Of a stretch of 64,000 nucleotides of DNA, positions 22,645 to 41,907 are shown piece after piece. Under the pieces are notes generated by a model. It saw only the letters and a list, made by a program, of their open reading frames with translations. It did not search any database and was not told the DNA's origin. The DNA is from an uncultured delta proteobacterium. Lineage in GTDB: Bacteria; Desulfobacterota; Desulfarculia; JACQYL01; CAWGVV01. The stretch is taken from assembly GCA_963826125.1 (NCBI GenBank), contig CAWGVV010000002.1, positions 137,305 to 201,304 of the forward strand, written 5' to 3'. How positions within the stretch are numbered: position 1 is the stretch's first letter; each line of letters begins with the position of its first letter. The position numbers and the translations under genes were made by a program.

Positions 22645-23023
22645 ACCTTACCCGCTTCCGTGTACCCTCAATATCCTGTTTTCGTCGATCTTCGGCCCGA
22701 ACAGAACCCATCCCCCGGTCGAAATCGCAAAATTGTCGAAATCGGCCTTGTTCCTCCGACGGTTTCCCGCGATAACGAAAAGCGGAGAGCTTTTTTTACC
22801 CCATGAGCCCGCTCCTGTTGCTAAATCACAAACCACGCGGGGAATCAAGGGCATTTCGGCGCACGGTTTCCCGTCATGAGAGCAAACAAGCCGTAAATTA
22901 CTTCATTTTTGTAGCAATTCAAACGAATTATTACCTGTGCGTAAGCAATAAGGAACAGCGGTATTTTATGACTGTCCATTATATTTCACTGATATCTTTC
23001 GCATTCTTCGTCAATGTCGCCCG

Positions 23024-23040
23024 CTGGCATGCCGGTTGCT
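23024..23040 (+). promoter_or_regulatory. Sigma-54 (-24/-12) promoter of amtB-glnB-glnD
   Basis: CTGGCATGCCGGTTGCT with exact GG-N10-GC spacing, about 50 nt upstream of the amtB start. Confidence 0.85.
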
Positions 23041-23091
23041 CTCCATGCGGTACCGCACCATTTTATTCCTGCTACCGGAGGTAGAGAAGTG

Positions 23092-24306
23092 ATGAACTCA
23101 GGGGACACCGCTTTTCTGTTGGTGTCATCGGCACTTGTCTTGCTGATGACACCGGGCCTTGCGCTTTTTTATGGAGGCATGGTCCGATCGAAAAATGTTT
23201 TATCAACGCTCATGCACAGCTTCGTGTGCATGGGCATCGTCACCATCGTCTGGGTGCTATGGGGGTACAGCCTGGCGTTCGGGGACGACATCGGCGGCTT
23301 CATCGGGGGATTCGGCAAGTTCGCGCTCGCCGGAGTGGGCGCCAAGCCTTTGGAGGGCTCGACCATTCCGGAATCGGTCTTCATGATTTTTCAGTTGATG
23401 TTCGCCATTATTACTCCGGCACTGATTTCAGGGGCAGTGGCGGAACGCATAAAATTCAGCGGTTATTGTCTTTTCATCCTGCTGTGGTCCACGTTCGTCT
23501 ATAGCCCCCTGGCCCATTGGGTATGGGGCGGCGGCTGGATCATGAAAATGGGGGCGCTCGATTTCGCCGGAGGAACCGTCGTGCATCTGAGTTCCGGCAC
23601 CTCGGCCCTGGCGGCCTGCATCATGCTGGGCAAGCGCCGGGGCTATCCACGGGAGAGAATCATGCCCCACAGCCTGCCCATGACCATCGTCGGGGCCGGC
23701 CTGCTGTGGTTCGGCTGGTTCGGATTCAACGCAGGGAGCGCGCTCGCCGCCAACGCTGTGGCCGGCAACGCCTTCGTCACCACCCACATCGCCACTGCCG
23801 CCGCGGCCATTACCTGGATACTGGCCGAATCCATCCATTCGGGCAAGGCCACGACCCTGGGGTTCGCCTCGGGCGCGGTAGCCGGTCTTGTGGCGATCAC
23901 GCCGGCCTGCGGCTTCGTGGGGCCCATATCGGCCATCGTCATCGGCATGGGCGGCGGATTTATCTGCTACACGGCCGTGATGTCCAAGTCCAAACTGGGC
24001 TATGACGACTCTCTGGACGTGGTGGGCGTTCATGGCGTAGGGGGAACCTGGGGCGCTCTGGCCACCGGTCTGTTCGCCACCACGGCCGTCAACCAAGCGG
24101 GCGGCAACGGTCTGTTCTTCGGCAACATGGGGCAGGTGGGCATTCAGCTTCTCTCCATCGTGGCCACCATTGCCTTTGCATTTGTGATGACGGTAATCAT
24201 ATACAAGCTGGTGGACGCCATCGTCGGCATGCGCGTGAAGGACGAGGATGAAGTCAGGGGACTCGATCTTACACAGCACAGTGAAGCCGCCTATACGACA
24301 GTGTAA
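23092..24306 (+). CDS. amtB: Ammonium transporter
   Basis: GDTAF, MTPGLALFYGG, DFAGGTVVH, LWFGWFGFN, DDSLDVVGVHG; GGAGG RBS at 23077. Confidence 0.97.
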   Translation: MNSGDTAFLLVSSALVLLMTPGLALFYGGMVRSKNVLSTLMHSFVCMGIVTIVWVLWGYSLAFGDDIGGFIGGFGKFALAGVGAKPLEGSTIPESVFMIFQLMFAIITPALISGAVAERIKFSGYCLFILLWSTFVYSPLAHWVWGGGWIMKMGALDFAGGTVVHLSSGTSALAACIMLGKRRGYPRERIMPHSLPMTIVGAGLLWFGWFGFNAGSALAANAVAGNAFVTTHIATAAAAITWILAESIHSGKATTLGFASGAVAGLVAITPACGFVGPISAIVIGMGGGFICYTAVMSKSKLGYDDSLDVVGVHGVGGTWGALATGLFATTAVNQAGGNGLFFGNMGQVGIQLLSIVATIAFAFVMTVIIYKLVDAIVGMRVKDEDEVRGLDLTQHSEAAYTTV

Positions 24307-24433
24307 ACGGGAATATGCGGCAATGGCGGAACATTGCGTTTCCGTCATTGTCGCCGGACAAGGGAGCATCGTCCAATCGAGAGGCAGGGGTAGGGGTTTC
24401 GACAGCAGCAACGTAGGCCACGGGCGACCGTAA

Positions 24434-24796
<363 letters not shown>

Positions 24797-25044
24797 TTTT
24801 CAACTCCGCTTCGCGCCGTCCGGTTCTCTCTCCAGGCCCCGGACCGTACGGGCGGCGGATAGTATGCTTGTAGTGCCGCGTCGCAAAGGAAATCCGGAGC
24901 CGCAATGATACCGCACAGACCGACCGCATACGGGGCAAAACTGTTGATACCCGGTTTTTGTTCCCACCCGGGAAATGCGGATCGTTGCACGGCGCCCTTT
25001 TCCTTTCGAGACCGGCACGCACAGGAGAAACAGTCGAGGAAAAG

Positions 25045-27702
25045 ATGTCAGAGCTTGCTCCACACCATGGAGAAAAATGGCAGGTTCCAGTGGAAGGCAC
25101 CCCCCTAGAGAGGCTGAAAAAGACTCGTGAGGAACTCGTCGCCCGATTTCTCTCCGGGAGGGAAGCCCAATTCCTCAGCCGCCACGCCGGCGCGTTCGAC
25201 GAGTATTTTCGCTCGAGCTATGAGGAGAGCGCAGTCGGTCCCCGTATGGGCATCGACAAGAATCCCTACGTCTTCATCGCCCTGGGCGGTTACGGTCGGA
25301 TGGAACAATGCATCCACTCCGATGTGGATGTCCTCGTCCTTTTCAAGAAGAAAGTCCCCGCCGCCGCAAAGGAACTGGTGCGGGAACTATTCTACCCGCT
25401 CTGGGACCTCGGGCTGGAGGTGGGCTACTCCACCAGGAGCTTGAGAGAGTGCTGTTCCATGGCCGCGGACGATTTCGAGATACTCACCGCCCTCCTCGAC
25501 TGCCGGTTCGTGTGCGGCATGTCCCATCTGTTTTCCGAACTCACGGAACAACTCCACGAAAAGGTGATTCGAAAGCAGCGCCGTGCCTTCACGCAATGGC
25601 TGGCGCAGTGGACCGCCGAACGCCACGCCAGATTCGGCGATTCCAGCTATCTTCTGGAACCCAACCTGAAGGACGGCCAGGGCGGGCTGCGGGATTATCA
25701 CACCACTCTGTGGCTCGCGCACTCCGTGTACAACCTGCGTGAACCGAGGGAAATGGTGTACGCAGACCTTCTCACCCACCAGGAATACGAAGAACTGCAG
25801 CAGGCCCTCTCGTTCATCTGGGAAGTACGCAACTGGCTGCACCACCTCACCGGCCGTAAGGCCGACCAGCTCTATTTCGAACACCAGATCAAGGTGGCCG
25901 AGGCGCTGAAATACCAGAAGGTCAACGGTCAGGAGCCCGTGGAGCGTTTCCTGGGCGAGTTGCACGGACACATGGAGCTGCTCAAGCGCCAGAACCTCAT
26001 GCTCCTGCAACGGGTGGCGCCGGTACGACAGGGACTTCGGCTGGTAAAGCCCCGCAAGCGCGTCACCGTGGCGGGATTGGAGATAGAGAACGACAAGCTG
26101 AAGTTCGAGACGCCCGAAATTATCCTCCAGAAACCCCACCTGCTGATCAAGATATTCGAACAGAGTTCCCGGCTCGCTCTGCCCATCAGCACGTCGGCCA
26201 AACGGCTGGTTCACGAGTTTTCCTACCTGGTGGACGACGAATTCCGTTCCGACAGGACCGTGGTGCAGGCAATGCAGCGCATCGTCAGCGATCCCCCCCG
26301 TACCTTCAACGTGATGGACGAAATGTACTTCTGCGGGCTCATGACCGAACTGTTCCCGGAACTCAAGGACATAGTGAATCGGGTGCAGTACGACATCTAC
26401 CACGTGTTCCCCGTGGACAAGCATTCGCTGCGGGCGTTGGAAAACGTGAAGAAGTTCGCTCGTGAGGAACGGGACGGCGAACACGACCTGTTCCAGGACA
26501 TCTACCGGGAGCTGAAACGGCCCGACCTTCTGCTGTGGGCCACCTTTTTCCACGACATCGGCAAGGGGATGGTAGGCAAGGACCATGCCGTGGCGGGCGA
26601 GGAACTGGTCAGGACCATTTTCACGCGCATGGAGTTTCCGCCCAATGACGTGGATACCATCGCGTTTCTGGTGCGGCATCATTTGCTTCTGGTGCACACG
26701 GCACAGAAGCGGGACATCAACGACGAAATGGAAGTTGTCCAATGTGCCCGCACTGCCCATGACACCGAACTGCTCAAAATGATCTATCTTCTCACGGTGG
26801 CGGATTCCATGGCCACCGGCCCCAAAGCCTGGAACGACTGGTCCGACGTACTCTACCGTGATCTCTTCTTCAAGGCCAGACGCATTCTGGCCAGAGGGGA
26901 ACTGGCGTCGCCCGCCGCCAGCGAATCGGTAAAGCGGAAACGGGAAGCGGTATTCGCCTCCCACTCCACCATGTCGGAGAAGGAACTGGAGGCGGTTTTC
27001 AATTCTTTTTCTCCGCGTTATGTCCTCTATACCCCTGAAAAAGACATCACGGCCCACATCGAATTGTACCGAAAGCTACTGGACAATCCTTTCGTGTGGG
27101 ACGTTCAGATGCACTCCAAGCGCAAATACCGGATAGCCACCATCTGCGCCAAGGACCGTCCAGGGCTGTTTTCCAAAATGGCCGGTGTTTTCACGCTGAA
27201 TAATCTGGACATCATGAACGCCCAGATTTACACGTGGCGAAACCAGGTGGCCATGGATATTTTTACCCTCAAGGCACCCCCGGACGAAACGAGGGAAGAC
27301 GAAACCTGGAAGCGCGCCGCCGAGAACCTCAAGGATGCCCTGGACGGATCGCTCGATCTTTCCGTCGCCCTGGCCAAGAAATTCGAGGGTCCCTATAACG
27401 CCGGGCACCGGCTCCGTCTCAAGCCGCCCAAGGTGGTGGTGGACAACAATTCCTCCGCTTTCTCCACCATCGTCGAAGTGTACACCTACGATTACCCCGG
27501 CCTGCTCTATCGTATCACCGATGCCCTTTTCCGTTGCAAGCTCGACGTGAAAGTGGCTAAGATCGGGACCAAAGTTGACCAGGTGCTGGATGTGTTCTAC
27601 GTACGCGACCTCGAGGGTCAGAAGGTCGACGATCCCAAGCAGGTGGAGGCCATCCAAAAGGCGCTCGAACCGGTGACGCAGTTCCCGTCGGAAGACGAAT
27701 AG
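25045..27702 (+). CDS. glnD: [Protein-PII] uridylyltransferase
   Basis: ALGGYGR...SDVD NTase, EPNLKDGQGGLRD, HD domain (FHDIGKG), and two ACT domains. Confidence 0.95.
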   Translation: MSELAPHHGEKWQVPVEGTPLERLKKTREELVARFLSGREAQFLSRHAGAFDEYFRSSYEESAVGPRMGIDKNPYVFIALGGYGRMEQCIHSDVDVLVLFKKKVPAAAKELVRELFYPLWDLGLEVGYSTRSLRECCSMAADDFEILTALLDCRFVCGMSHLFSELTEQLHEKVIRKQRRAFTQWLAQWTAERHARFGDSSYLLEPNLKDGQGGLRDYHTTLWLAHSVYNLREPREMVYADLLTHQEYEELQQALSFIWEVRNWLHHLTGRKADQLYFEHQIKVAEALKYQKVNGQEPVERFLGELHGHMELLKRQNLMLLQRVAPVRQGLRLVKPRKRVTVAGLEIENDKLKFETPEIILQKPHLLIKIFEQSSRLALPISTSAKRLVHEFSYLVDDEFRSDRTVVQAMQRIVSDPPRTFNVMDEMYFCGLMTELFPELKDIVNRVQYDIYHVFPVDKHSLRALENVKKFAREERDGEHDLFQDIYRELKRPDLLLWATFFHDIGKGMVGKDHAVAGEELVRTIFTRMEFPPNDVDTIAFLVRHHLLLVHTAQKRDINDEMEVVQCARTAHDTELLKMIYLLTVADSMATGPKAWNDWSDVLYRDLFFKARRILARGELASPAASESVKRKREAVFASHSTMSEKELEAVFNSFSPRYVLYTPEKDITAHIELYRKLLDNPFVWDVQMHSKRKYRIATICAKDRPGLFSKMAGVFTLNNLDIMNAQIYTWRNQVAMDIFTLKAPPDETREDETWKRAAENLKDALDGSLDLSVALAKKFEGPYNAGHRLRLKPPKVVVDNNSSAFSTIVEVYTYDYPGLLYRITDALFRCKLDVKVAKIGTKVDQVLDVFYVRDLEGQKVDDPKQVEAIQKALEPVTQFPSEDE

Positions 27703-29760: not shown

Positions 29761-31065
29761 TTACAGAAGCCGGGCGCCCAGTTCGGCAACCAGCGACCGC
29801 TCCCCCTTGACCAACGTGACGTGCCCGGTGATCTCCTCGTCCTTCAGCTTCTCCACCAGATAGGTGAGGCCGTTGCTGCTGGCGTCGAGATACGGATGGT
29901 CGATCTGGTCGGGATCGCCCGTAAAAACGATCTTGGTGCCTTCGCCCACCCGGGTAAGGAGCGTCTTGACCATGTTGGGGGTGAGGTTCTGCGCCTCGTC
30001 GCAGAGGATGAACTGACCCGGAATGCTGCGGCCGCGGATGTAGGTAAGCGCTTCCATCTCCAGCGATCCCCGCTTCTGCAGGTCTTCCAGGATGCCGAGG
30101 GGGTCGGCGCAGTTGCCGAGCAGGAACTCCAGATTGTCGTAGATGGGCTGCATCCAGGGGCGGAGCTTCTCCTCCTTTGAGCCGGGAAGATAGCCGAGAT
30201 CGTTCCCCATGGGAATAACGGGCCGCGTGACCAGCATGCGGCTGTAGGTGTTTTGCTCCAGCACCTTTTCCAGCCCCGCCGCCAGCGCCAGCAGCGTCTT
30301 CCCGGTACCGGCTTTGCCCACCAGGGTCACCACCTTCACCGAATCGTCCATCAGCAGGTCGAAGGCGAACTTCTGTTCCTTGTTGCGGGCCTTGATCCCC
30401 CAGTATTTGGGATTTTCCGACGCAAGGAGGGCGATGGCTCCTCCCCGGTATCGGCACAAAGCGGACTGGGAAGGGTTGACGCCGTTCCTCACGATGAGAA
30501 AGCAATGGGGGGCCACCCGCGGCTCGCTTTCGGGCCAGGCCAACCGTTCCTCGCGAAAGAGGCAGTCCACCTCCTCCGCTCCCAGGTGCATTTCCTGCAC
30601 GCCGTTGTAGAGCTGATTGTAGTCGACCCGATCCGAATGAAAATCCTCCGCCTGAATGGACAACACGTCGGCCTTGATGCGCAGGTTCAAGTCCTTGGTG
30701 ACCAGAATGACCGGTTCCTTTTGCTCCATCTTCAGATTGTAGGCCACGGCCAGGATTCGGTTGTCGTACTTGTTCGGGTCGAGTCCCTTGGGCGGCTCCA
30801 TGATCTCCTGATGGTTGAGTTCGATCCACAACATACCGCCGTCTCCGATGGGAACTCCTTCCGAAAGATGGCCGAGCCCACGCATGGTGTCCAGTTCCCG
30901 CGACACCATGCGTGCATGCCGGCCGATCTCGTCCTGACCCCGTTTGTGGTTGTCGATCTCCTCCACCACCGCCAACGGAATGACCACGTTGTTGTCCGCA
31001 AACGAGAACAAAGCTCTGGGATTGTGCAGCAAAACGTTGGTGTCCAGGACGTAGGTTTTTTTCAT
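29761..31065 (-). CDS. PIN-PhoH family ATPase (PhoH2/YlaK-like)
   Basis: YVLDTNVLL PIN, VTKDLNLR, GKAGTGKT, GYLPG, YIRGRS, DEAQN, GDPDQID. Confidence 0.93.
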   Translation of the reverse strand: MKKTYVLDTNVLLHNPRALFSFADNNVVIPLAVVEEIDNHKRGQDEIGRHARMVSRELDTMRGLGHLSEGVPIGDGGMLWIELNHQEIMEPPKGLDPNKYDNRILAVAYNLKMEQKEPVILVTKDLNLRIKADVLSIQAEDFHSDRVDYNQLYNGVQEMHLGAEEVDCLFREERLAWPESEPRVAPHCFLIVRNGVNPSQSALCRYRGGAIALLASENPKYWGIKARNKEQKFAFDLLMDDSVKVVTLVGKAGTGKTLLALAAGLEKVLEQNTYSRMLVTRPVIPMGNDLGYLPGSKEEKLRPWMQPIYDNLEFLLGNCADPLGILEDLQKRGSLEMEALTYIRGRSIPGQFILCDEAQNLTPNMVKTLLTRVGEGTKIVFTGDPDQIDHPYLDASSNGLTYLVEKLKDEEITGHVTLVKGERSLVAELGARLL

Positions 31066-31702
31066 GCCTTCATACCTTCCTTTCGTCTGCAGGGATTTGG
31101 CCCGACGGACAACGGCCGTGCCGGCGGGACAAGAGGAGATGCGGTTTGCGGAAAAGCTCGAGCCGGGACGATAGCGTGCCGAGACATTCCGCACTTTGTT
31201 CATGGTTCCCGCCCATCCGACGCTTTCGGGGGAAAAGAGGCCATGGACGTTCCGTAATCGGGCGTCGGAACGCGGAACCGGCCTGTGGAGGGCAGTGGAG
31301 AGAAGAAAATGCGGAGGAATGGTTCCCGGGGAATGCGATCGAGGAATGGCATCGTTTCCTGTTTCGTCTTAACGCCCTCCGATTCGGTGAGAAAAAAGAA
31401 AACCGCCGGCTGTTACACCGACGGCTTTCAAAAGGAGGAAGATGCGAAAGGGCTGCTGCATGGGCCGGGAATTCCCCGACATCATAATGAAGTCGTTAAG
31501 GGGCGCAATTCTCCTTCGCATTCCGAATTCCTATCCTCACAATATTAGACAGTAATGAGGAACAACGAAAAAGACAATTATTTTCCCTGCCGAGGTGCCG
31601 GGATGTCCCCTTATTATCCTCTTTCACGTCGCGCGGACGTCTCGTTATGCACTTTTTCTGCGTTATCCGTCCCTATCCGATTCATTTGGCGGAAAGATAA
31701 AA

Positions 31703-31730: not shown

Positions 31731-31822
31731 AACGCCGTTTATTTTAGTCCAATAGAAAAAAGAAATTCCCACCGGCGAACTCCCGCGGGAGAGTACTACG
31801 ATTGGAAAGGCAGGATAAATAC

Positions 31823-32194
31823 ATGCAATTTTACGTACATGAAGTTCCCGGGAGGCTTCGGGTAAAAATTCCAACCATAAAACACAACCCTGCAGGCGCC
31901 GACCGGGTGAAGGATATGATCGGCGGGCTCGGCGGGGTGCAGTCCGTTGCCGTCACGCACGTCACCGGCAGCGTTGTCGCCTATTTCGACTCCACCGCCA
32001 TCAGCTCCTCCGATATCCTCTCGACCCTGAAACAGAACGGCTACTTCGACGATTCCAGAGTCATTACCAACGAAGCCTATGTGAAAGACGCCGTGTCCAA
32101 GGCCGGTCAATCGGTGAGCCGAGTAATGATGAGCTGGTTACTGGGAGCCGCGTTGGAAGACACCGGACTGGGATTCCTAGCCGCGCTCATTTAA
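31823..32194 (+). CDS. HMA2-domain small protein (Fez-like)
   Basis: VHEVPGRLRVK...VTGSVV ferredoxin-like HMA fold without CxxC; hydrophobic C-terminus GLGFLAALI. Confidence 0.85.
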   Translation: MQFYVHEVPGRLRVKIPTIKHNPAGADRVKDMIGGLGGVQSVAVTHVTGSVVAYFDSTAISSSDILSTLKQNGYFDDSRVITNEAYVKDAVSKAGQSVSRVMMSWLLGAALEDTGLGFLAALI

Positions 32195-32523: not shown

Positions 32524-33723
32524 TCACTTGGGAAGGTACTGGGCCAGCAGCTCCGCCTTGTCCGTCTTCTCCCAGGGCAGGTCCATGTCCGTTCTTCCGA
32601 AGTGGCCGTACGCCGCAAGGTTCTGGTAGAACCCCCGAGGATTGAGTCGCGGGAGGCGGCGCAGGTTGAGATCGCGCAGGATGGCGGCCAACCGAAAATC
32701 GAAGTGCCGTTCCACCAGTTCGGTGAGTTCGAGGTCGTCGAGTTTCCCCGTGCCATACGATTCCACCACCAGACTGACCGGACGGGTCAGCCCGATGGAG
32801 TAGCTGAGCATCACTTCGCATTCCTCCGCCAGGCCGGCGGCGACGATGTTCTTGGCCGCATAGCGTGCGGCATAGGCGCCCACGCGATCGATCCGGGTCG
32901 GGTCCTTGCCGCTCAGCGCATTGCCGCTCTGGCGCGAATATTCTCCATACGTGTCCACGTGGTTTTTTCTGCCCGTCAGCCCCGAATGGTGCGGCGGCCC
33001 ACCCATGAACACTCCGTCCGGATTGATGAAAATCCTCGTCTTTTCATCCGGCTTCACCGTCAACTCAGAAAAAACGGGGTCAATCACGGCCGTACGCAGG
33101 TCGTCGGAGAGAGTCTTCAGGTCGGGAGTTTTCAAATCCCGCTGGCTGGCCGTGATAGTCACGCTGTGGATGCGTCGGGGCCGGCGGTCTTCATATTCCA
33201 CCCCCACCTGTATTTTGCCGTCCGGCATGAGGTAGGGAAGAATTTTTTCTGTTCGAACGGTGTCCAGCCTGCGGGAAAGTTTCCGGGCGACCCAGATGGG
33301 GAACGGCAGGAACGTGGGCGACTGGTTGCAGGCAAACCCGAACAGGGTGACCTGGTGCTTCACCGGAATCTTTTCGATCTGTTCGTCGGACAGTTCGTGT
33401 TCGTTGAAAAGCGCATACTCGTCGGGCGGCGTTCCCACGGGAGAGCTGAGGATGCTGGTGCTTTTGGAATTGAAATCCTGCTGGTCGTAGCCGATGCGTT
33501 TGATCACCTTGCGCGCGACGTGCGACAGATCCACCTTGGCGCTCGTTGCGAACCGGGCGGCAATGAACACGATGGCGCTCGACACGGCGCATTCGGCCCG
33601 CACGCGGGCGGCCGGGTCCTGCATCAGAAAATGATCGACAATGGCGTCGCTGATCTGGTCGCACAGCTTGTCAGGATGGCCCTCGGTCACCGATTCCGAC
33701 GTGAACATGAAGTCTTTTCTCAT
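32524..33723 (-). CDS. metK: Divergent methionine adenosyltransferase (MetK) paralogue
   Basis: FTSESVTEGHPDK, DGKIQV, GLTGRK, SGKDPTRIDR and YGHFGR..PWE motifs; Met-binding motifs altered (see findings). Confidence 0.85.
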   Translation of the reverse strand: MRKDFMFTSESVTEGHPDKLCDQISDAIVDHFLMQDPAARVRAECAVSSAIVFIAARFATSAKVDLSHVARKVIKRIGYDQQDFNSKSTSILSSPVGTPPDEYALFNEHELSDEQIEKIPVKHQVTLFGFACNQSPTFLPFPIWVARKLSRRLDTVRTEKILPYLMPDGKIQVGVEYEDRRPRRIHSVTITASQRDLKTPDLKTLSDDLRTAVIDPVFSELTVKPDEKTRIFINPDGVFMGGPPHHSGLTGRKNHVDTYGEYSRQSGNALSGKDPTRIDRVGAYAARYAAKNIVAAGLAEECEVMLSYSIGLTRPVSLVVESYGTGKLDDLELTELVERHFDFRLAAILRDLNLRRLPRLNPRGFYQNLAAYGHFGRTDMDLPWEKTDKAELLAQYLPK

Positions 33724-36700
33724 AGTGTGTCCCGACTTTTTGTTTTTATCAGTTCATTCACGGTCAGGGACAGAAGAGAACTTCCGGCGATGACCGCCGC
33801 GTCCATCAACGCGGGCGTCGTTATTCCGAGGAGCCCCCTCAATCCGGGAATCACCATGGTGAGCGCCTGCAGCACCAGCGATCCACCCACGGCCAGGGTA
33901 AGGTATCCGTTGCGGGGAGGATGCTCCCGTGTGAAGATGCTGTGGTTCTCCGACCGGCACACGATCGCGTGCAGCAACTGACCGATGGTGAGACTCTGAA
34001 AGGCAATGGACGTAGCCTGCGCACCCAACCCGTACCGCGCCAGCCCGTAGAGGTACGCACCCAGCGTGGTTCCCGATATCACCGAGGATTCGACGACCAT
34101 CTTCCGGTAGTCGCGCCCCGAGAAGAGCGGAGCCTCGGGGTCCCGGGGCTTCCTTTCGAGGATGTCCGGTTCCGCCGCTTCCATGGAAAGGGCCAGCCCC
34201 GGAAAAATGTCCGATATGATGTTGATCCACAACAACTGCATGACGTTCAGCGGCGCGCCCACGCCCCCGGCGAGCGCCGCGAACATGACCATGATTTCGC
34301 TCAGATTGGTGGAAAGGAAGAAATGCACGGATTTCCGGATGTTGCTGTAGGTGACGCGGCCGTCACGTACGGCGATGATCAGCGTCTCCAGCCGGTCGTC
34401 TTCCAGCACCACGTCCGCCACTTCCCTGGCCACGTCGGTCCCGCTCAGGCCCATGGCGATTCCGATGTCCGCGGCCTTCAAGGCCGGTCCGTCGTTTATG
34501 CCGTCCCCGGTCATGGCCACGACCCGACCTACGGACTGCAACGCCTGGACGATTCGGAGTTTGTGGGCGGGGCTGACCCGGGAGTAGACATGCACTTTTT
34601 CGGCCAGCGCTTCCATCACCTCCGGGTTCACGGACATGAGTTCGGTGGAGTCGAGGATTTCCAACGGTTCGTTTCCGTTGAGATTGAGCCGACGGGCCAC
34701 GGCGTAAGCCGTGGGGCTCTGGTCGCCGGTGATCATGACGGTCCCCATGCCCGCTGCGTGGAACATCCGCACCAAGTCCTCCACGCCCTCCCGTATGGGG
34801 TCGGTCATGCCCACGATGCCCAGCCAGGTCATGTTGTCTTCCTCGTCGGAAGCGTCGCCCTCTCCGTTCGAATCGCGATAGGCCACGCCCAGGACGCGGA
34901 GCGCTTCACCGGCCATGCGGTCGTTTTCCGCCTCGATTTCCAGCCGGTCTTCATCGCCCAGCGGCACTCTGCGGCCGTCGTCATTCATCCACCAGGAACA
35001 CCGGGCCAGCACTTCCGGCGGGCTTCCCTTCATGGCCAGATACGTTCCGCCGATGGGCGCCGTGTGCAGGGTGGTCATAAACAGCCGGCTTTCGGCGCGG
35101 TGGGAGATCGAAAGGAGCGGGTATTCCTCCTTGAGAACCGATATGTCGATGCCCGAACTGATGGCGGTGTCGATGAGCGCGTTTTCGGTGGGAGAGCCGT
35201 GAAAGACGTAGCCCTCCTCATCCGTCTTTTTCTCCACCTGCGTTTCGTTGCACAGGGCGCACACCCTGAGGAGGTCCCCGATCTGCTCCATTCCCCGCGG
35301 ATCGACGGATTCGTTCCCCAGGAAGAAGCCGTTGTTCCTGATGTCGATCCGGCTGCCGCCGGAGTAAATCCGGACCACGGTCATGCGATTCATGGTGATG
35401 GTGCCGGTCTTGTCCAGGCACAACGTCTGTACCGCGCCCAGCGTTTCCACTGCCTGCAATTTCCGGATAAGCACCCGGTGCTTCTTCATGTTCTGGATGC
35501 CCAGGGCGAAGTTTACGGTGGCAGCGGCCGGGAGCCCTTCCGGCACCGCCGCCGCGGCCAGCGACACGGACATCCGCAGCATCTGTAAAAATCCGTAGCC
35601 GCGCAGCATGCCGATGGCGAACACCACTCCGCAAATGCCGCTGCACAGCACCACGAGTTGATCGCCGATCCGGCCGAGGCTCTTTTCAATGGGCGTTTCC
35701 GGCGTTTCCGTGCCTTCAAGCAGAATCTGCAATTTTCCGATTTCGGTGAACCTGCCCGTGGCGACCACCACGACCAGCCCTTCCCCGCCCGTCACCAGGG
35801 TGCCCATGTAGGCCATGTTGAACCGGTCGGCGATGGGAATGTTGATTCCTTCCAGGTCGCCAGCATACTTGAACACGGGCATGCTCTCGCCGGTGAGGGT
35901 GGATTCGTCGATGCTGAGGTGCGACGCCCTGAGCACCCGGCAGTCGGCCGGTACGTAGAACCCCGGTTTGAGCACCATGACGTCGCCGATGGCCACTTCT
36001 TCCACCAGGACCTGCATGGGTTCGCCGTCGCGGATGACTTCGGCGTGGTGGTGCACAAACCGTTTGAGGGATTGGATCGTCTTCTCCGCCCTGTTTTCGG
36101 TGACGAAGCCGATGACCGCGTTGGCCACGGTGACTCCCGCGATGATGGCCGCATCGAGCAGCCCGCCCGATACGATGGAAATTCCCGCCGCCACTCCCAG
36201 CAGGGCCACGGGCAACGACATGAACTGACCGGCGAACATGGCCCAGCGCGAACGGGGTTCCGCCTCGGGAAGCACGTTCAAACCGTAGCGGTCCACGCGC
36301 TCACGCGCGTCCAACGGACTGAGCCCCCGCTCGAAATCGGTTTCCAGCACCGAAAGAAGCGACTGGTTGTCCACCAGGTGCCAGGAGTTGTCCCTCCGTT
36401 CCTCGGTGGGGAACAGGAAGTGTTTCAATTTCTCGGGGATAAGGAGGTCGGCGACGTCGATGACGGCGCGCCGGATTTTCTTTTCCTTCGGAGGAGGCGG
36501 AGCGTCTTCTGTCTTCCGCTGTCTGAACGGGATGACGCGCGGGCGGGAAGGCGGTCCGTCGTCGGTATTTTCCGGGAGAATGCCGCGAATATACTCCTCA
36601 ACGTCCCAGTGGCGTACGTCGGGGGTGAACAGTACCAGGACGTTGCCGGTACCGATGTCGGCCCGCACACTCAGGACGTTGGGAAAGAAAGCGAGTTCCC

Positions 36701-36794
36701 GTTCCAGAAGGGCTTTCAGATACTCCGATTGCCGGAGCCCCCGAACCTTGTATCGTCCCCTTCCGGGGACTTTCGTGTGGAGCGGTTGTACCAT
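33720..36794 (-). CDS. P2A-type (Ca2+/Mn2+-like) P-type ATPase with N-terminal HMA2 domain
   Basis: TGES, PEGL, DKTGT, KGSPE, TGD, GDGINDGPAL, M5 STNLSE, M6 QLLWINIISD; N-terminal HTKVPGRGRYK..TGNVLV; ATGA overlap with the metK-like gene. Confidence 0.93.
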   Translation of the reverse strand: MVQPLHTKVPGRGRYKVRGLRQSEYLKALLERELAFFPNVLSVRADIGTGNVLVLFTPDVRHWDVEEYIRGILPENTDDGPPSRPRVIPFRQRKTEDAPPPPKEKKIRRAVIDVADLLIPEKLKHFLFPTEERRDNSWHLVDNQSLLSVLETDFERGLSPLDARERVDRYGLNVLPEAEPRSRWAMFAGQFMSLPVALLGVAAGISIVSGGLLDAAIIAGVTVANAVIGFVTENRAEKTIQSLKRFVHHHAEVIRDGEPMQVLVEEVAIGDVMVLKPGFYVPADCRVLRASHLSIDESTLTGESMPVFKYAGDLEGINIPIADRFNMAYMGTLVTGGEGLVVVVATGRFTEIGKLQILLEGTETPETPIEKSLGRIGDQLVVLCSGICGVVFAIGMLRGYGFLQMLRMSVSLAAAAVPEGLPAAATVNFALGIQNMKKHRVLIRKLQAVETLGAVQTLCLDKTGTITMNRMTVVRIYSGGSRIDIRNNGFFLGNESVDPRGMEQIGDLLRVCALCNETQVEKKTDEEGYVFHGSPTENALIDTAISSGIDISVLKEEYPLLSISHRAESRLFMTTLHTAPIGGTYLAMKGSPPEVLARCSWWMNDDGRRVPLGDEDRLEIEAENDRMAGEALRVLGVAYRDSNGEGDASDEEDNMTWLGIVGMTDPIREGVEDLVRMFHAAGMGTVMITGDQSPTAYAVARRLNLNGNEPLEILDSTELMSVNPEVMEALAEKVHVYSRVSPAHKLRIVQALQSVGRVVAMTGDGINDGPALKAADIGIAMGLSGTDVAREVADVVLEDDRLETLIIAVRDGRVTYSNIRKSVHFFLSTNLSEIMVMFAALAGGVGAPLNVMQLLWINIISDIFPGLALSMEAAEPDILERKPRDPEAPLFSGRDYRKMVVESSVISGTTLGAYLYGLARYGLGAQATSIAFQSLTIGQLLHAIVCRSENHSIFTREHPPRNGYLTLAVGGSLVLQALTMVIPGLRGLLGITTPALMDAAVIAGSSLLSLTVNELIKTKSRDTL

Positions 36795-36983: not shown

Positions 36984-37478
36984 TCAGATGATCGGTCCGT
37001 TGTTATGTTTTTCCATGAGCGATTTGGTGAAAACCCCGAAAGCGTACCAGAATGCGGTATACCAGGGCGGAAATTGCAGCCTGCCTCTCAATGCCTGGTA
37101 AATGCCCACTCCCACCAGGCCCGTGAAAACGGCCTCTCCCAGCCCCACTTCGCCGCCCGTAATGCTTTGCATCTTCCGGTTGGCGTCGAGAAGCGGAGAA
37201 ATGATCTTCTGCGCGAGGGGGACGGGCGTGCCCGCCTTCTTCTCCAGTTCGAAGAGCCCCTCTTTCCTGGCATAAGCGGCAATGTCCTCAACACCGGGCT
37301 CTCCCCCGACGATGAGCACGCTCGCTGAATGAGGATTCACCTGAACATATTCAAGAGAGCGAAGGGTTTCGAGCTTTTGTCGAACGGTTTCGAAGTAGCC
37401 GCTGTCCGCCCTTCGCTCCGTGATCTTGATTCTCACCCTTTGGTTCGTCCTGTGCACAACCTGTGCTTGGGGAAGCAT
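36984..37478 (-). CDS. HMA2-domain membrane protein (FezC-like)
   Basis: VVHRTNQRVRIK..NPHSASVLI, then GLVGVGIYQALRG and PPWYTAFWYAF membrane segments. Confidence 0.82.
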   Translation of the reverse strand: MLPQAQVVHRTNQRVRIKITERRADSGYFETVRQKLETLRSLEYVQVNPHSASVLIVGGEPGVEDIAAYARKEGLFELEKKAGTPVPLAQKIISPLLDANRKMQSITGGEVGLGEAVFTGLVGVGIYQALRGRLQFPPWYTAFWYAFGVFTKSLMEKHNNGPII

Positions 37479-38288: not shown

Positions 38289-40529
38289 ATGAAACCACTC
38301 CAAGCAGCCTCCTTCCGCGTCGCCCACTCCGTGCCGGGCCGGATAAAACTCAAATCCCGCAGCCTTCGCTCCGCCCCCGCACTGGCGGACGAAGTCGAAT
38401 CGAACCTTTCCTCCATCGACTTCATCGACAGCGCGGCTGTTCGCAGAACCACGGGGTCCGTCATCATCGCCTACGACCGGCGCCGGTTCTCGCCCGAGAA
38501 CATCGTCGACCGGTTGGGCAAACACCTGGACATCCGCCCCCTGCCCGGCCGCGCACCCGTGTCCGAAACCGATGCCGAGGCCATGGAGTGGCAAACCATG
38601 TTCACGGGAGAAGTCTCGACGTCCAGACCGGTATTCGTCGTTCATCTGGTCAATCTGATCGCCCTGAGCGGAGTCCTGGCTTTTATTCTCGTCAAACGGT
38701 TCCTGTTCCGTTCATCCCTTTCGCAGAAAGCGCTGAGTCCGCTCGGCGGGATCGCCATGATCGCCTCCCTGCCGCTCCTCCTCCGCGCCTTGAAAGACCT
38801 GCGATCCACCGGCCGTTTCGGCCTCTTCCCCTTTCTGGTCATGGGCTGCTTCCTGGCCGTCTTCCTGGGGGAAGCCATCACCGCCATCGAGATTCTCTGG
38901 GTGCTTTCCCTCGGGCTGTTGCAGGAAGAGTATGCAACGGACCGTTCCCGCAGGGCGGTACGCGGGTTGTTCAGGATCACGGACAGCAATGTGGTCGTCC
39001 TGGTGGACGGCGCCGAAGTCGTGCTCCCCGTCTCCGGTCTCAAGATCGACGACGAAATCGTGCTGCGCTCCGGCGACAGAATTCCGGCCGACGGCGAGGT
39101 TATCCGAGGAGAAGCCCTGGTGGACGAAGCCCACATCACGGGGCGGTCGAATCCGGAATATCGAAGCGCCGGCAGCCGGTTGTACGCCGGAACCACGCTG
39201 TGGGAGGGAACCCTGTTCCTCCGCGCCGAAAAGGTCGGATCGGAGACGTATCTGGCGCGCATGCTGCGCATGGTGGAGGAATCCCTGGCCCGGCAGACCG
39301 AATCGGAAAAGAAGGCCGATGAACTCGCCCACCGCATGACCGCCACCGGTCTCGCGGCGACCGTCGGCACCCTGCTGCTCACCGGCAGCCTTTCCCGCGC
39401 TTTCTCCGTCATGCTGGTCATGACCTGCCCGTGCGCCACCGTGCTTTCCGCTTCCACCGCCGTGGCGGCGGCCATCGGCAACGCCGCGCGAAAAAACGTT
39501 CTGGTAAAGGGCGGAATCCACCTGGAACACATGAAGTACATCGACACCTATTGTTTCGACAAAACGGGCACCGTCACCGAGGACGTACCCTCCGTCATAG
39601 AAGTGGTGCCGCGCGCCGCGTGGCAGGACAGGGACACCATCCTCGGTCTGGCAGCCGCGGCCGAAAATGGAAGCAACCATCCCATGGCCAGGGCCCTGGA
39701 CGAAGAAACCCGCAATCGCTCCATCGACGTCCCAAAGGTGGACAAAACGGAAGCGGTGCTGGGCAGAGGCATACGGGCGGAGATGGGTGGAGAGCCGATT
39801 CTGGTGGGCAACGGCGCCTTCATGGAGGAAGAAGGCGTGAACGTCGCCTACTTCAAGTCAAAGGCCTCCAGTCACCAGGATGCGGGCGAAACCGTGCTGT
39901 ACGTGGCCCGCAAAGGCAAACCGCAGGGCATGATCGTGCTTTCCAATCAGCCCAGAGCCGAGGCGGGCAAGGCCCTCACCTGGCTGAAAACGCATACCGG
40001 AGCCCGCATCTGCCTCCTGAGCGGCGACACCGAACCCCTGGTGCGCTCCCTATCCGGCCGGCTCGGCTTCGACGAATTCAAGGCCCCCATGCTGGGGGAG
40101 GAAAAGGCGCTGTTCATCGAGAAGTTGGAAAGCGCGGGGCGCCGGGTGGCCATGATCGGGGACGGAATCAACGACGCACTGGCGCTCTCCAAGGCCACCA
40201 TCGGCATCGGCATGGGCGCGGGCGGCTCCGAGGTGGCCATCGAAGCTTCCGACGTGGCGCTGGTCAAGGACGACCTCATGGGACTCGTCTTCCTGCACCG
40301 GCTGAGCGAACGGATGATGAAAACCATCGAGCAGAATTTCTGGATCGCCAACGCTACCAACATCGTCGGCATCGTCTGCGGGGGACTGGGCTGGTTTCCC
40401 CCGGTCATGGCGGGGGTTCTCCACGTGAGCCACACCATGGCCATCATGGCCAATTCGAGCCGACTCCTTTCCTGGAACCCGGCTCTTCCCGCGGATGAGG
40501 AGATTGCGGACGCCGAAGCCGCGGACTGA
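38289..40529 (+). CDS. P1B-type heavy-metal P-type ATPase with HMA2 N-terminus (ferrosome FezP/FezB-like)
   Basis: VAHSVPGRIKLK..TGSV, CPC in M4, DKTGT, HP, GDGINDALAL, LHVSHT..NS in M6; the A-domain motif is TGRS. Confidence 0.9.
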   Translation: MKPLQAASFRVAHSVPGRIKLKSRSLRSAPALADEVESNLSSIDFIDSAAVRRTTGSVIIAYDRRRFSPENIVDRLGKHLDIRPLPGRAPVSETDAEAMEWQTMFTGEVSTSRPVFVVHLVNLIALSGVLAFILVKRFLFRSSLSQKALSPLGGIAMIASLPLLLRALKDLRSTGRFGLFPFLVMGCFLAVFLGEAITAIEILWVLSLGLLQEEYATDRSRRAVRGLFRITDSNVVVLVDGAEVVLPVSGLKIDDEIVLRSGDRIPADGEVIRGEALVDEAHITGRSNPEYRSAGSRLYAGTTLWEGTLFLRAEKVGSETYLARMLRMVEESLARQTESEKKADELAHRMTATGLAATVGTLLLTGSLSRAFSVMLVMTCPCATVLSASTAVAAAIGNAARKNVLVKGGIHLEHMKYIDTYCFDKTGTVTEDVPSVIEVVPRAAWQDRDTILGLAAAAENGSNHPMARALDEETRNRSIDVPKVDKTEAVLGRGIRAEMGGEPILVGNGAFMEEEGVNVAYFKSKASSHQDAGETVLYVARKGKPQGMIVLSNQPRAEAGKALTWLKTHTGARICLLSGDTEPLVRSLSGRLGFDEFKAPMLGEEKALFIEKLESAGRRVAMIGDGINDALALSKATIGIGMGAGGSEVAIEASDVALVKDDLMGLVFLHRLSERMMKTIEQNFWIANATNIVGIVCGGLGWFPPVMAGVLHVSHTMAIMANSSRLLSWNPALPADEEIADAEAAD

Positions 40530-41609: not shown

Positions 41610-41907
41610 ATCGATAAAATAAACGCATGGTGAACCCCTCCACACGTTCGCCATGCGCCTTTCATATTTCCCGGGGGAACTATTTTAATGGATTTCCCAT
41701 GGCAGAGGGCGGATTGATCTCGATCCGCTCTCATGTTCATGTGCAGGTTTGCCAAGCACCACTTCCCCTTTTTCGTCAGTGCGTTTGCACTGACGGACAT
41801 GAATATCGCTCCTCCGAACGCATTCGGCAAAGTAATCGACCGGCATCCTTTGGTTATCTCACAAGTCAGACGGTCCGGGGATGTTTGAACCTCCGATTTT
41901 CCCCCGC

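Follow-up and report, generated by a model that had tools for sequence, protein, structure and literature searches.

A MetK-derived protein with a replaced methionine pocket, encoded behind a P2-type cation pump in Desulfobacterota and cyanobacteria

The window analysed here, a stretch of 64,000 nucleotides (nt) from contig CAWGVV010000002.1 of an uncultured member of the Desulfobacterota, encodes a 399-amino-acid (aa) homologue of the methionine adenosyltransferase MetK (P0002) directly downstream of a P2-type cation ATPase. Judging from alignment, the residues that contact methionine in S-adenosylmethionine (SAM) synthetase are gone from this protein and the triphosphate machinery is intact. 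The reading that we favour, with about as much confidence as doubt, is that P0002 is a methionine-independent MetK-derived enzyme, the fixed downstream operon partner of a P2 pump that bears a CoBaHMA-type domain, and not the SAM synthetase of the cell. An original prediction, made from the letters of this DNA, had already proposed that the protein is probably not a housekeeping SAM synthetase, and this part of the reading is now well supported by the presence of a canonical metK elsewhere in the genome, by the placement of the protein in a separate clade and by its changed ligands. The features on which the argument turns are the following.

32524..33723, minus strand: MetK-like protein P0002, H238/R269 subfamily, 399 aa, triphosphate/Mg site kept and methionine ligands replaced
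33720..36794, minus strand: P2-type cation ATPase P0003, 1024 aa, with DKTGT, PEGL, TGD and GDGIND motifs; its alignment to human SPCA1 and Listeria LMCA1 covers residues 146-1021
33720..33723, minus strand: ATGA, in which the stop TGA of the ATPase overlaps the start ATG of the MetK-like gene, ACACTATGAGAAAAGAC

A MetK fold with an altered active site

The open reading frame (ORF) of P0002 starts with ATG and runs on the minus strand, the original prediction having named no strand. At the level of domains and fold, P0002 is a member of the MetK superfamily. It matches the three Pfam MetK domains (PF00438, 115 bits; PF02772, 108 bits; PF02773, 183 bits) and passes the NCBIfam metK model TIGR01034 with 364.5 bits against a cut-off of 309.4. 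The nearest solved structures are bacterial MetKs at approximately 40% identity, and an AlphaFold2 model built from a 73-row alignment, with a mean predicted local distance difference test score (pLDDT) of 90.6, superimposes in Foldseek on E. coli MetK (8bb1_A) with a query template-modelling score (TMq) of 0.88 at 41% identity.

Residues are numbered here as in the E. coli K-12 metK product without its initiator methionine. In the canonical enzyme, H14 is described as the catalytic acid and F230 as stacking on adenine, E55, Q98, I102 and D238 touch SAM or methionine, with I102 meeting the side chain, and the methionine carboxylate is held by Q98 and K269 and the amino group by D238 and E55 (PMC3853416; PMC1282579; PMC8727953), while the ribose hydroxyls are held by D163 and D238 (PMC3853416; PMC1282579; PMC8727953; PMC6850014). 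Aligned to this sequence, P0002 keeps H14, D16, K17, E42, D163, K165, F230, R244, K245, K265 and D271. Nine of them (H14, D16, K17, E42, D163, R244, K245, K265 and D271) serve MetK in binding K+, two Mg2+ and the triphosphate of ATP, and in breaking the C5'-O bond and tripolyphosphate. It replaces G54-E55 by A-R, Q98 by T, D118 by H, D238 by H, C239 by S and K269 by R, and the GGGAF of residues 258-262 reads SGNAL. The methionine- and SAM-binding positions E55, Q98, I102, D238 and K269 are accordingly occupied by R, T, E, H and R, the T at 98 and the E at 102 falling in a region (around 98-108) where the alignment is uncertain, and with D118 included all six methionine/SAM contacts are altered. 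Every residue named by the original prediction was reproduced in the E. coli sequence, and all of its hand-aligned substitutions were right.

The same pattern runs through the relatives of P0002. Its best 120 matches among 5.8 billion proteins are 65%–75% identical to it and, where the source is named, come from Desulfobacterota (Desulfatiglans, Desulfobacterales) and Nostoc; relatives are annotated as methionine adenosyltransferase in their sources. All 120 keep H14, D16, K17, E42, R244, K245, K265 and D271, D163 is present in 119 and K165 in 113, so that each ligand of triphosphate, Mg2+ and K+ and the catalytic His is found in 113–120 of the 120, and position 230 is F or Y in 100. D238H, C239S, F262L and K269R occur in 120 of 120 and S258 in 119. 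Residue 55 is most often R (97 sequences) and otherwise H (18), N (3) or Q (2). At position 118, 116 sequences have one of N, S, T and H and two have D, and position 98 is L, F, S, A or T.

A broader comparison of 174 signature-bearing sequences with 113 canonical MetKs gave 55 positions conserved in both groups, all phosphate and Mg ligands among them. Five canonical invariants are each switched to a different, nearly invariant residue in the 174 (D238H and K269R in 100%, V270I in 95%, G258S in 93% and G253E in 87%) and nine are relaxed (Q98, I102, G115-D118, G260, F230 and V248), F230 being affected in this alignment by the placement of a one-residue gap, for which reason the 120-homologue alignment is used for that position. 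Since D238H, C239S, F262L and K269R are found in every one of the 120 homologues, and D238H with K269R in all 174, this pattern is more than chance. With D238 to H and K269 to R invariant and E55 changed to R or H, the acceptor pocket is, as read from these alignments, more cationic. Both alignments bear out the earlier proposal that methionine ligands were replaced and phosphate and Mg ligands kept.

Mutants of canonical enzymes bear on what such a site may still do. The human MAT1A variants D258G and K289N make little SAM with phosphatase activity unaffected, and E. coli gating-loop mutants show a SAM kcat reduced >200-fold with hydrolysis of tripolyphosphate (PPPi) unchanged (PMC6850014). 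Mapped by constant motif offsets, human D258 and K289 probably correspond to E. coli D238 and K269. We infer that P0002 would have lost SAM synthesis at a useful rate and retained Mg-ATP binding and triphosphate cleavage.

A separate clade, a separate metK and a fixed pump partner

More divergent representatives, drawn from a search of 1.84 billion 50%-cluster representatives, share the H238/R269/L262/C43 signature. In a 68-row IQ-TREE analysis, all signature rows and two near-signature rows fall on one side of a split with 97 support in the Shimodaira-Hasegawa-like approximate likelihood ratio test (SH-aLRT), 28 rows against 40 canonical, in a tree that is unrooted, built with a 'quick' method, limited to lengths of 360–440 aa and thinned to one in three for the canonical representatives. 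P0002 has H238, R269 and L262 and lies in the split-off clade, which agrees with the separate clade that was anticipated from the sequence; by these marks the family is a distinct MetK-derived subfamily, named here the H238/R269 type. The cyanobacterial copies nest within the Desulfobacterota copies, beside a metagenome-assembled genome (MAG) of the Syntrophales (91 support), and this nesting suggests transfer between phyla. Ratios of nonsynonymous to synonymous substitution (dN/dS) of 0.025–0.136 in nine close pairs indicate strong purifying selection.

The MetK-like gene is broken in a few genomes. One locus gave a multi-frame tblastn pattern (L033 8001-9183), and two genomes of the phylum sample described below (G069:C21 and G146:C72) have one in-frame stop each, which implies that the gene can decay while the pump stays. 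Many MetK homologues of 780–1240 aa, e.g., P0276 and P0278, carry inserted intein domains (PF14528, PF14890); the few with named sources are from Woesearchaeota, Nanoarchaeota and Aenigmarchaeota.

A second, canonical metK, whose presence in the genome was one of the points raised by the original prediction, lies on the other contig (C1) of this two-contig genome. It scores 592.7 bits with TIGR01034, has the GAGDQG, GDCG and HGGGCF motifs and is directly followed by an ORF that resembles adenosylhomocysteinase, the name ahcY being our own reading of its sequence. P0002 is thus neither the sole MetK copy of the genome nor the one in a housekeeping context. Five out of five other variant-carrying genomes (NaphS2, Chlorogloeopsis fritschii PCC 6912 and three MAGs) also hold a canonical copy, at 541–607 bits compared with 366–404 bits for the variant. 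When 401 genomes, sampled evenly from the phylum, were searched for MetK-like matches, 34 besides the window's own gave a full-length match (56%–70% identity, 461–641 bits) and one more a partial match; the variant is thus present in 35 of the 401, the window's own genome counted, and it also occurs in Nostocales. The next matches in this sample, at ≤48% identity and ≤331 bits, are the canonical enzyme, leaving a clear gap. At least two MetK matches were found in 33 of the 34 sampled genomes that hold the paralogue, and altogether another MetK match accompanies the variant in 39 of 40 genomes (our own, the five and the 33 of 34).

The pump upstream matches PF00690, PF00122, PF00702 and PF00689, which makes it a P2-type ATPase, and the DKTGT, PEGL, TGD and GDGxND motifs are invariant among its orthologues. 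Its best NCBIfam models are the PMR1-type TIGR01522 (600 bits, under the cut-off of 798) and the SERCA-type Ca2+ ATPase TIGR01116, also under cut-off, and its best solved relatives are SPCA1 (479 bits) and LMCA1 (468 bits) over residues 146-1021. By homology, the pumped ion would be Ca2+ or Mn2+.

The pump lies directly upstream of the MetK-like gene on the same strand, and this arrangement is nearly constant across the family. One-genome-per-species contigs yielded 31 genome loci, of which 30 carry the variant. In 28 of these 30, a pump orthologue (49%–69% identity) immediately precedes the variant on the same strand; of the other two, one lies on a contig that begins within the gene and one is truncated. 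With the divergent representative P0130 as seed, a metagenome scan returned 80 loci, 41 with H238/R269 and 39 with the canonical D238/K269. The pump is upstream in 38 of the former (two of the other three have no upstream DNA and one has a partial ATPase downstream) and in none of the 39 latter. Linkage to P2-type ATPases, as originally proposed for the clade, therefore holds for 66 of the 71 family loci, which come from Desulfobacterota, cyanobacteria and metagenomes, and it persists in members only 38%–47% identical to P0002 (L045, L080, L083 and L084). The ATGA overlap, taken at the outset as a sign of translational coupling, is real, and the two genes overlap or nearly abut in each of the 24 non-cyanobacterial genome loci, where the pump stop lies from 53 nt inside to 15 nt before the first aligned MetK-like codon; in three of three cyanobacterial loci the two genes are separated by 62–311 nt. 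This fixed place behind the pump, often with a stop/start overlap, points to co-production and joint function.

Some loci depart from the common layout. Chlorogloeopsis fritschii PCC 6912 has two pump and MetK-like pairs, both copies being pump-linked; in the second pair (L125 3635-6830), the pump is split in two ORFs near its C-terminus and lies ~500 nt from the MetK-like gene. Two metagenome loci (L051 3069-6626 and L063 3445-7002) encode 1185-aa pumps with a different, longer N-terminal extension; in both, a separate CoBaHMA protein still precedes the pump and the MetK-like gene follows it. In seven Desulfatibacillum/Desulfobacterales loci (L012, L013, L014, L017, L024, L025 and L027), the MetK-like gene is followed, at a distance of a few kb, by a second, paralogous P2-type ATPase (34%–39% identity to the pump of the window), which has no MetK-like partner of its own. 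Apparent chimeras of ATPase and MetK-like protein (P0274, P0275 and P0277) are not true fusions, since each is a singleton that lacks a large internal part of one partner in Pfam; we read them as deletions or mis-assemblies. A 1237-aa ORF in L045 was likewise rejected as a fusion because the ATPase lies in another frame.

A structure prediction for the MetK-like dimer with pump residues 1-140 gave a complex score of 0.37 (runs 0.00, 0.53 and 0.37), the best of three controls scoring 0.00. In calibration, 58 of 80 solved complexes attained the mark, as did 2 of 110 mismatched pairs; at scores ≤0.60, those that attained it were only 7 of the 80 complexes and both of these mismatches. At least 4% of contacts are shared between the runs, and the pLDDT of the partner is no lower than 56. 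Contact of the MetK-like protein with the pump N-terminus is thus weakly predicted.

Rfam searches at E ≤ 1 gave no riboswitch or other family associated with the operon, and no sigma-70-like promoter match was found for it. PADLOC matched neither the MetK-like protein nor the pump nor any of the CoBaHMA proteins, and a defense-system reading was rejected on that ground.

What the MetK-like partner may do

If the enzyme that we favour is methionine-independent, it would still bind Mg-ATP and consume it without methionine. The adenosyl group would be passed to a non-methionine acceptor, which could be an anion or water, an anionic one being favoured by R55, H238 and R269, and PPPi would then be cleaved to pyrophosphate (PPi) and phosphate (Pi). 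Such an enzyme may act at the cytoplasmic face of the pump, within a CoBaHMA-tagged module that sequesters cations, and, as a speculation, the local Pi, PPi or PPPi could serve for, or against, mineral formation in a CoBaHMA-tagged compartment. The original prediction had suggested that the protein may adenosylate a different, possibly anionic, acceptor or may hydrolyse ATP or PPPi to feed the pump and a granule. Retention of the triphosphate activity is favoured by the human D258G and K289N variants, which lose SAM synthesis and keep the phosphatase, and a reaction that starts from ATP is favoured over a phosphatase for free PPPi by the H14, D163 and aromatic residue 230 kept in the pump-linked clade.

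An obligate gene pair, whose stop/start overlap implies approximately 1:1 co-production, would also suit a non-catalytic or barely catalytic subunit that senses nucleotide or polyphosphate through the old triphosphate site and regulates or scaffolds the pump. The residues for the first chemical step on methionine are gone, and the weak predicted contact with the pump N-terminal domain (0.37 compared with 0.00 for the best control) would fit as well. We consider this unlikely, as the full catalytic set, which includes the acid H14 and both Mg ligands, D16 and D271, does not vary among 174 sequences from different phyla, a conservation that exceeds what binding alone usually demands, and the dN/dS values are in the low range of enzymes. 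An inorganic tripolyphosphatase, or a phosphatase for polyphosphate ends, dedicated to that task and without nucleoside binding, which would supply Pi or PPi or remove a Ca2+ chelator near the pump, could use the new basic residues R55, H238 and R269 to bind extra phosphates. The human variants and the E. coli gating-loop mutants, which keep PPPi hydrolysis when SAM synthesis is lost, are consistent with it. Yet H14 in 120, D163 in 119 and an aromatic residue 230 in 100 of the 120 pump-linked homologues argue for a bound nucleoside, and free PPPi is not known to be an abundant metabolite; this explanation is improbable.

The remaining rival is a genuine second SAM synthetase isozyme with unusual methionine contacts, making SAM locally or under special conditions, and it would account for the TIGR01034 match and for the annotation of the relatives. 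We regard it as very improbable given that all six contacts are changed, that human MAT1A is crippled in SAM synthesis by changes at the probable counterparts of D238 and K269 (PMC6850014) and that nearly every genome with the gene has another MetK match. TIGR01034 passes every H238/R269 protein tested, at 364–404 bits (the window, L002, L041-L044 and G153), and NCBIfam has no separate model for the family, TIGR01034 being the sole match. Because this equivalog model passes them all, H238/R269 proteins are automatically named methionine adenosyltransferase, which is probably wrong and a case of over-annotation.

Several points weigh against the methionine-independent, ATP-consuming partner enzyme that we prefer. 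TIGR01034 is an 'equivalog' model, and by that rule P0002 is a MetK. One MAG (G153, 99% complete, 390 contigs) has only the variant, which would favour the isozyme; searches of it with TIGR01034 and with the archaeal-type PF01941 gave no second methionine adenosyltransferase, which may be a true absence or an assembly gap. Some divergent branches lack K165 and the aromatic residue at 230, which fits a function that does not need adenosine, such as the tripolyphosphatase. D238 also binds the ribose 3'-OH (PMC3853416; PMC6850014), so that nucleoside binding itself may be altered in H238 proteins. The model of P0002, confident elsewhere, is weak in a low-confidence loop at residues 260-267. The link to the pump is genomic, with a weak complex prediction, and we see no convincing reason for a cation pump to need such an enzyme.

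In its most far-reaching form, which we judge decidedly unlikely as a whole, the proposal would make this the first neofunctionalised branch of an otherwise mono-functional MetK fold, an ATP-splitting enzyme docked on a CoBaHMA-tagged Ca2+/Mn2+-type pump. It would feed either an inorganic polyanion, be it PPPi, PPi or Pi, or an adenosylated anion of a new kind, and this anion would nucleate the cation deposit, or keep it amorphous, in a membrane-bounded, ferrosome-like storage compartment, shared by Desulfobacterota and heterocystous cyanobacteria via horizontal transfer of the whole cassette.

The CoBaHMA neighbourhood and known systems

Three neighbours of the pair in the window have a CoBaHMA domain that passes the Pfam cut-off; they are given here together with the pump extension and a PhoH-like gene.

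36375..36794, minus strand: residues 1-140 of the pump, an N-terminal extension with a CoBaHMA-like or 'R-rich' signature, H6, G11, R12 and R14
36984..37478, minus strand: CoBaHMA (PF19991 HMA_2) protein, 164 aa, hydrophobic tail, 36.5 bits; first gene of the apparent operon
31802..32194, plus strand: CoBaHMA protein, 130 aa, hydrophobic tail, 38.7 bits; convergent with the MetK-like gene
38289..40529, plus strand: P1B-type ATPase, 746 aa, with N-terminal CoBaHMA domain (HMA_2 47.1 bits) and CPC motif
29761..31203, minus strand: PhoH-like ATPase with PIN domain, possible peripheral member of the neighbourhood

The CoBaHMA domain was originally reported from calcyanin (ccyA), which serves in cyanobacteria to mark the presence of intracellular amorphous CaCO3 (PMC8890360; bioRxiv 10.1101/2024.07.07.602159), and a 2025 preprint equates HMA_2 with the CoBaHMA domain. 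An 'R-rich' N-terminal RxR motif has been reported on FezB, related P1B ATPases and other Fez proteins, together with an HMA domain on FezC (bioRxiv 10.1101/2020.01.10.902569); this motif is, we infer, the same feature as the CoBaHMA signature. The extra 145 N-terminal residues of the pump open with H-x4-G-R-x-R, in which H6, G11, R12 and R14 are invariant in 20 of 20 orthologues, and HMA_2 scores 16.9 bits on this region (gathering cut-off 30) and 32.4 on the Chlorogloeopsis orthologue. The 164-aa protein has orthologues ahead of the pump in 18 of the 30 genome and 10 of the 41 metagenome loci. Orthologues of the 130-aa protein stand where it does in the window in 11 of 30 and 11 of 41, respectively. 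The 746-aa P1B ATPase, which is transcribed divergently from the operon, has orthologues in L007, L023 and L033. Ferrosome (fez) membership was rejected, since this only P1B ATPase of the cluster has CPC and lacks the P1B-6 motifs D[Y/F]SCA and HNxxT.

Other genes recur near the cluster in individual loci. PhoH-PIN orthologues are found in L004, L007 and L076. A ParA/MinD-like P-loop ATPase and a further CoBaHMA protein of 182–183 aa stand beside the cluster in L006 (10008-11353) and L007 (9947-11279); ParA-type proteins often position organelles. L006 also holds two PstS-like (PBP_like_2) proteins. In a Chlorogloeopsis locus (L008 2754-3272 and 4165-4737), small DUF5132 proteins beside the pump, one with a weak HMA_2 tail, stand in for the 164-aa CoBaHMA protein of the Desulfobacterota. 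Elsewhere in the window, an ammonium transporter gene followed by a GlnD-type uridylyltransferase (23014-27702, plus strand) is an ordinary nitrogen-regulation pair unrelated to the cluster, and a sub-threshold Rfam match to ctRNA_pND324 lies at 41612-41687 on the minus strand (39.2 bits, gathering 45, E = 0.005).

MetK has been treated as a single-function family, and here a conserved and widespread branch has, as far as its residues tell, a rebuilt acceptor pocket and could carry out a new reaction with ATP. That it is nearly always paired with a P2 pump, itself probably CoBaHMA-tagged, gives a testable way into the role of CoBaHMA or 'R-rich' modules, and may bear on the building and filling of membrane-bounded cation stores by bacteria, ferrosomes and intracellular amorphous carbonates among them. 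Neither a MetK paralogue with a changed methionine pocket nor a MetK/P-type ATPase pair was found described in the literature searched, the founding CoBaHMA paper and the fez and calcyanin supplementary tables lying outside that search. The eukaryotic MATX paralogue is reportedly a different case.

Compared with canonical MetK (EC 2.5.1.6; PDB 1RG9, 8BB1), P0002 has the same three-domain fold, phosphate, Mg and K ligands and catalytic His. The H238/R269 family differs in replacing E55, Q98, I102, D118, D238 and K269 and in turning the P-loop-like HGGGAF into (H/Q)SGxAL, and its genes coexist with canonical metK, are never beside ahcY-type housekeeping genes and almost always stand behind a P2 ATPase. 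The human hypermethioninaemia variants D258G and K289N of MAT1A, altered at the positions probably equivalent to D238 and K269, make little SAM and keep tripolyphosphatase activity (PMC6850014). These are loss-of-function disease alleles, whereas in the H238/R269 family His and Arg have become fixed and are shared by members from different phyla, implying selection for a new function.

The pump has its closest counterparts in SPCA1 (ATP2C1, PDB 8IWW) and LMCA1 (PDB 6ZHF), whose PEGL Glu and transmembrane helix 6 Asn/Asp it keeps, and differs from both in its extra 145-residue N-terminal CoBaHMA-like extension and its dedicated MetK-like partner. Ferrosome clusters likewise combine a P-type ATPase with small proteins that share an H..GRxRxK-type motif and hydrophobic tails, in an anaerobic Desulfobacterota setting. 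Their FezB is P1B-6, in contrast to the P2-type (Ca/Mn-like) central pump here, and no MetK-like gene was seen among the Fez proteins described in bioRxiv 10.1101/2020.01.10.902569. Neither a calcyanin nor a GlyZip gene was found in the window, which shares with calcyanin systems the CoBaHMA family. The domain is common to its flanking small proteins and P1B ATPase, the copy on the P2 pump being sub-threshold or supported through its orthologue. Chlorogloeopsis, a genus discussed in the calcyanin work, itself carries two of the pump and MetK-like pairs.

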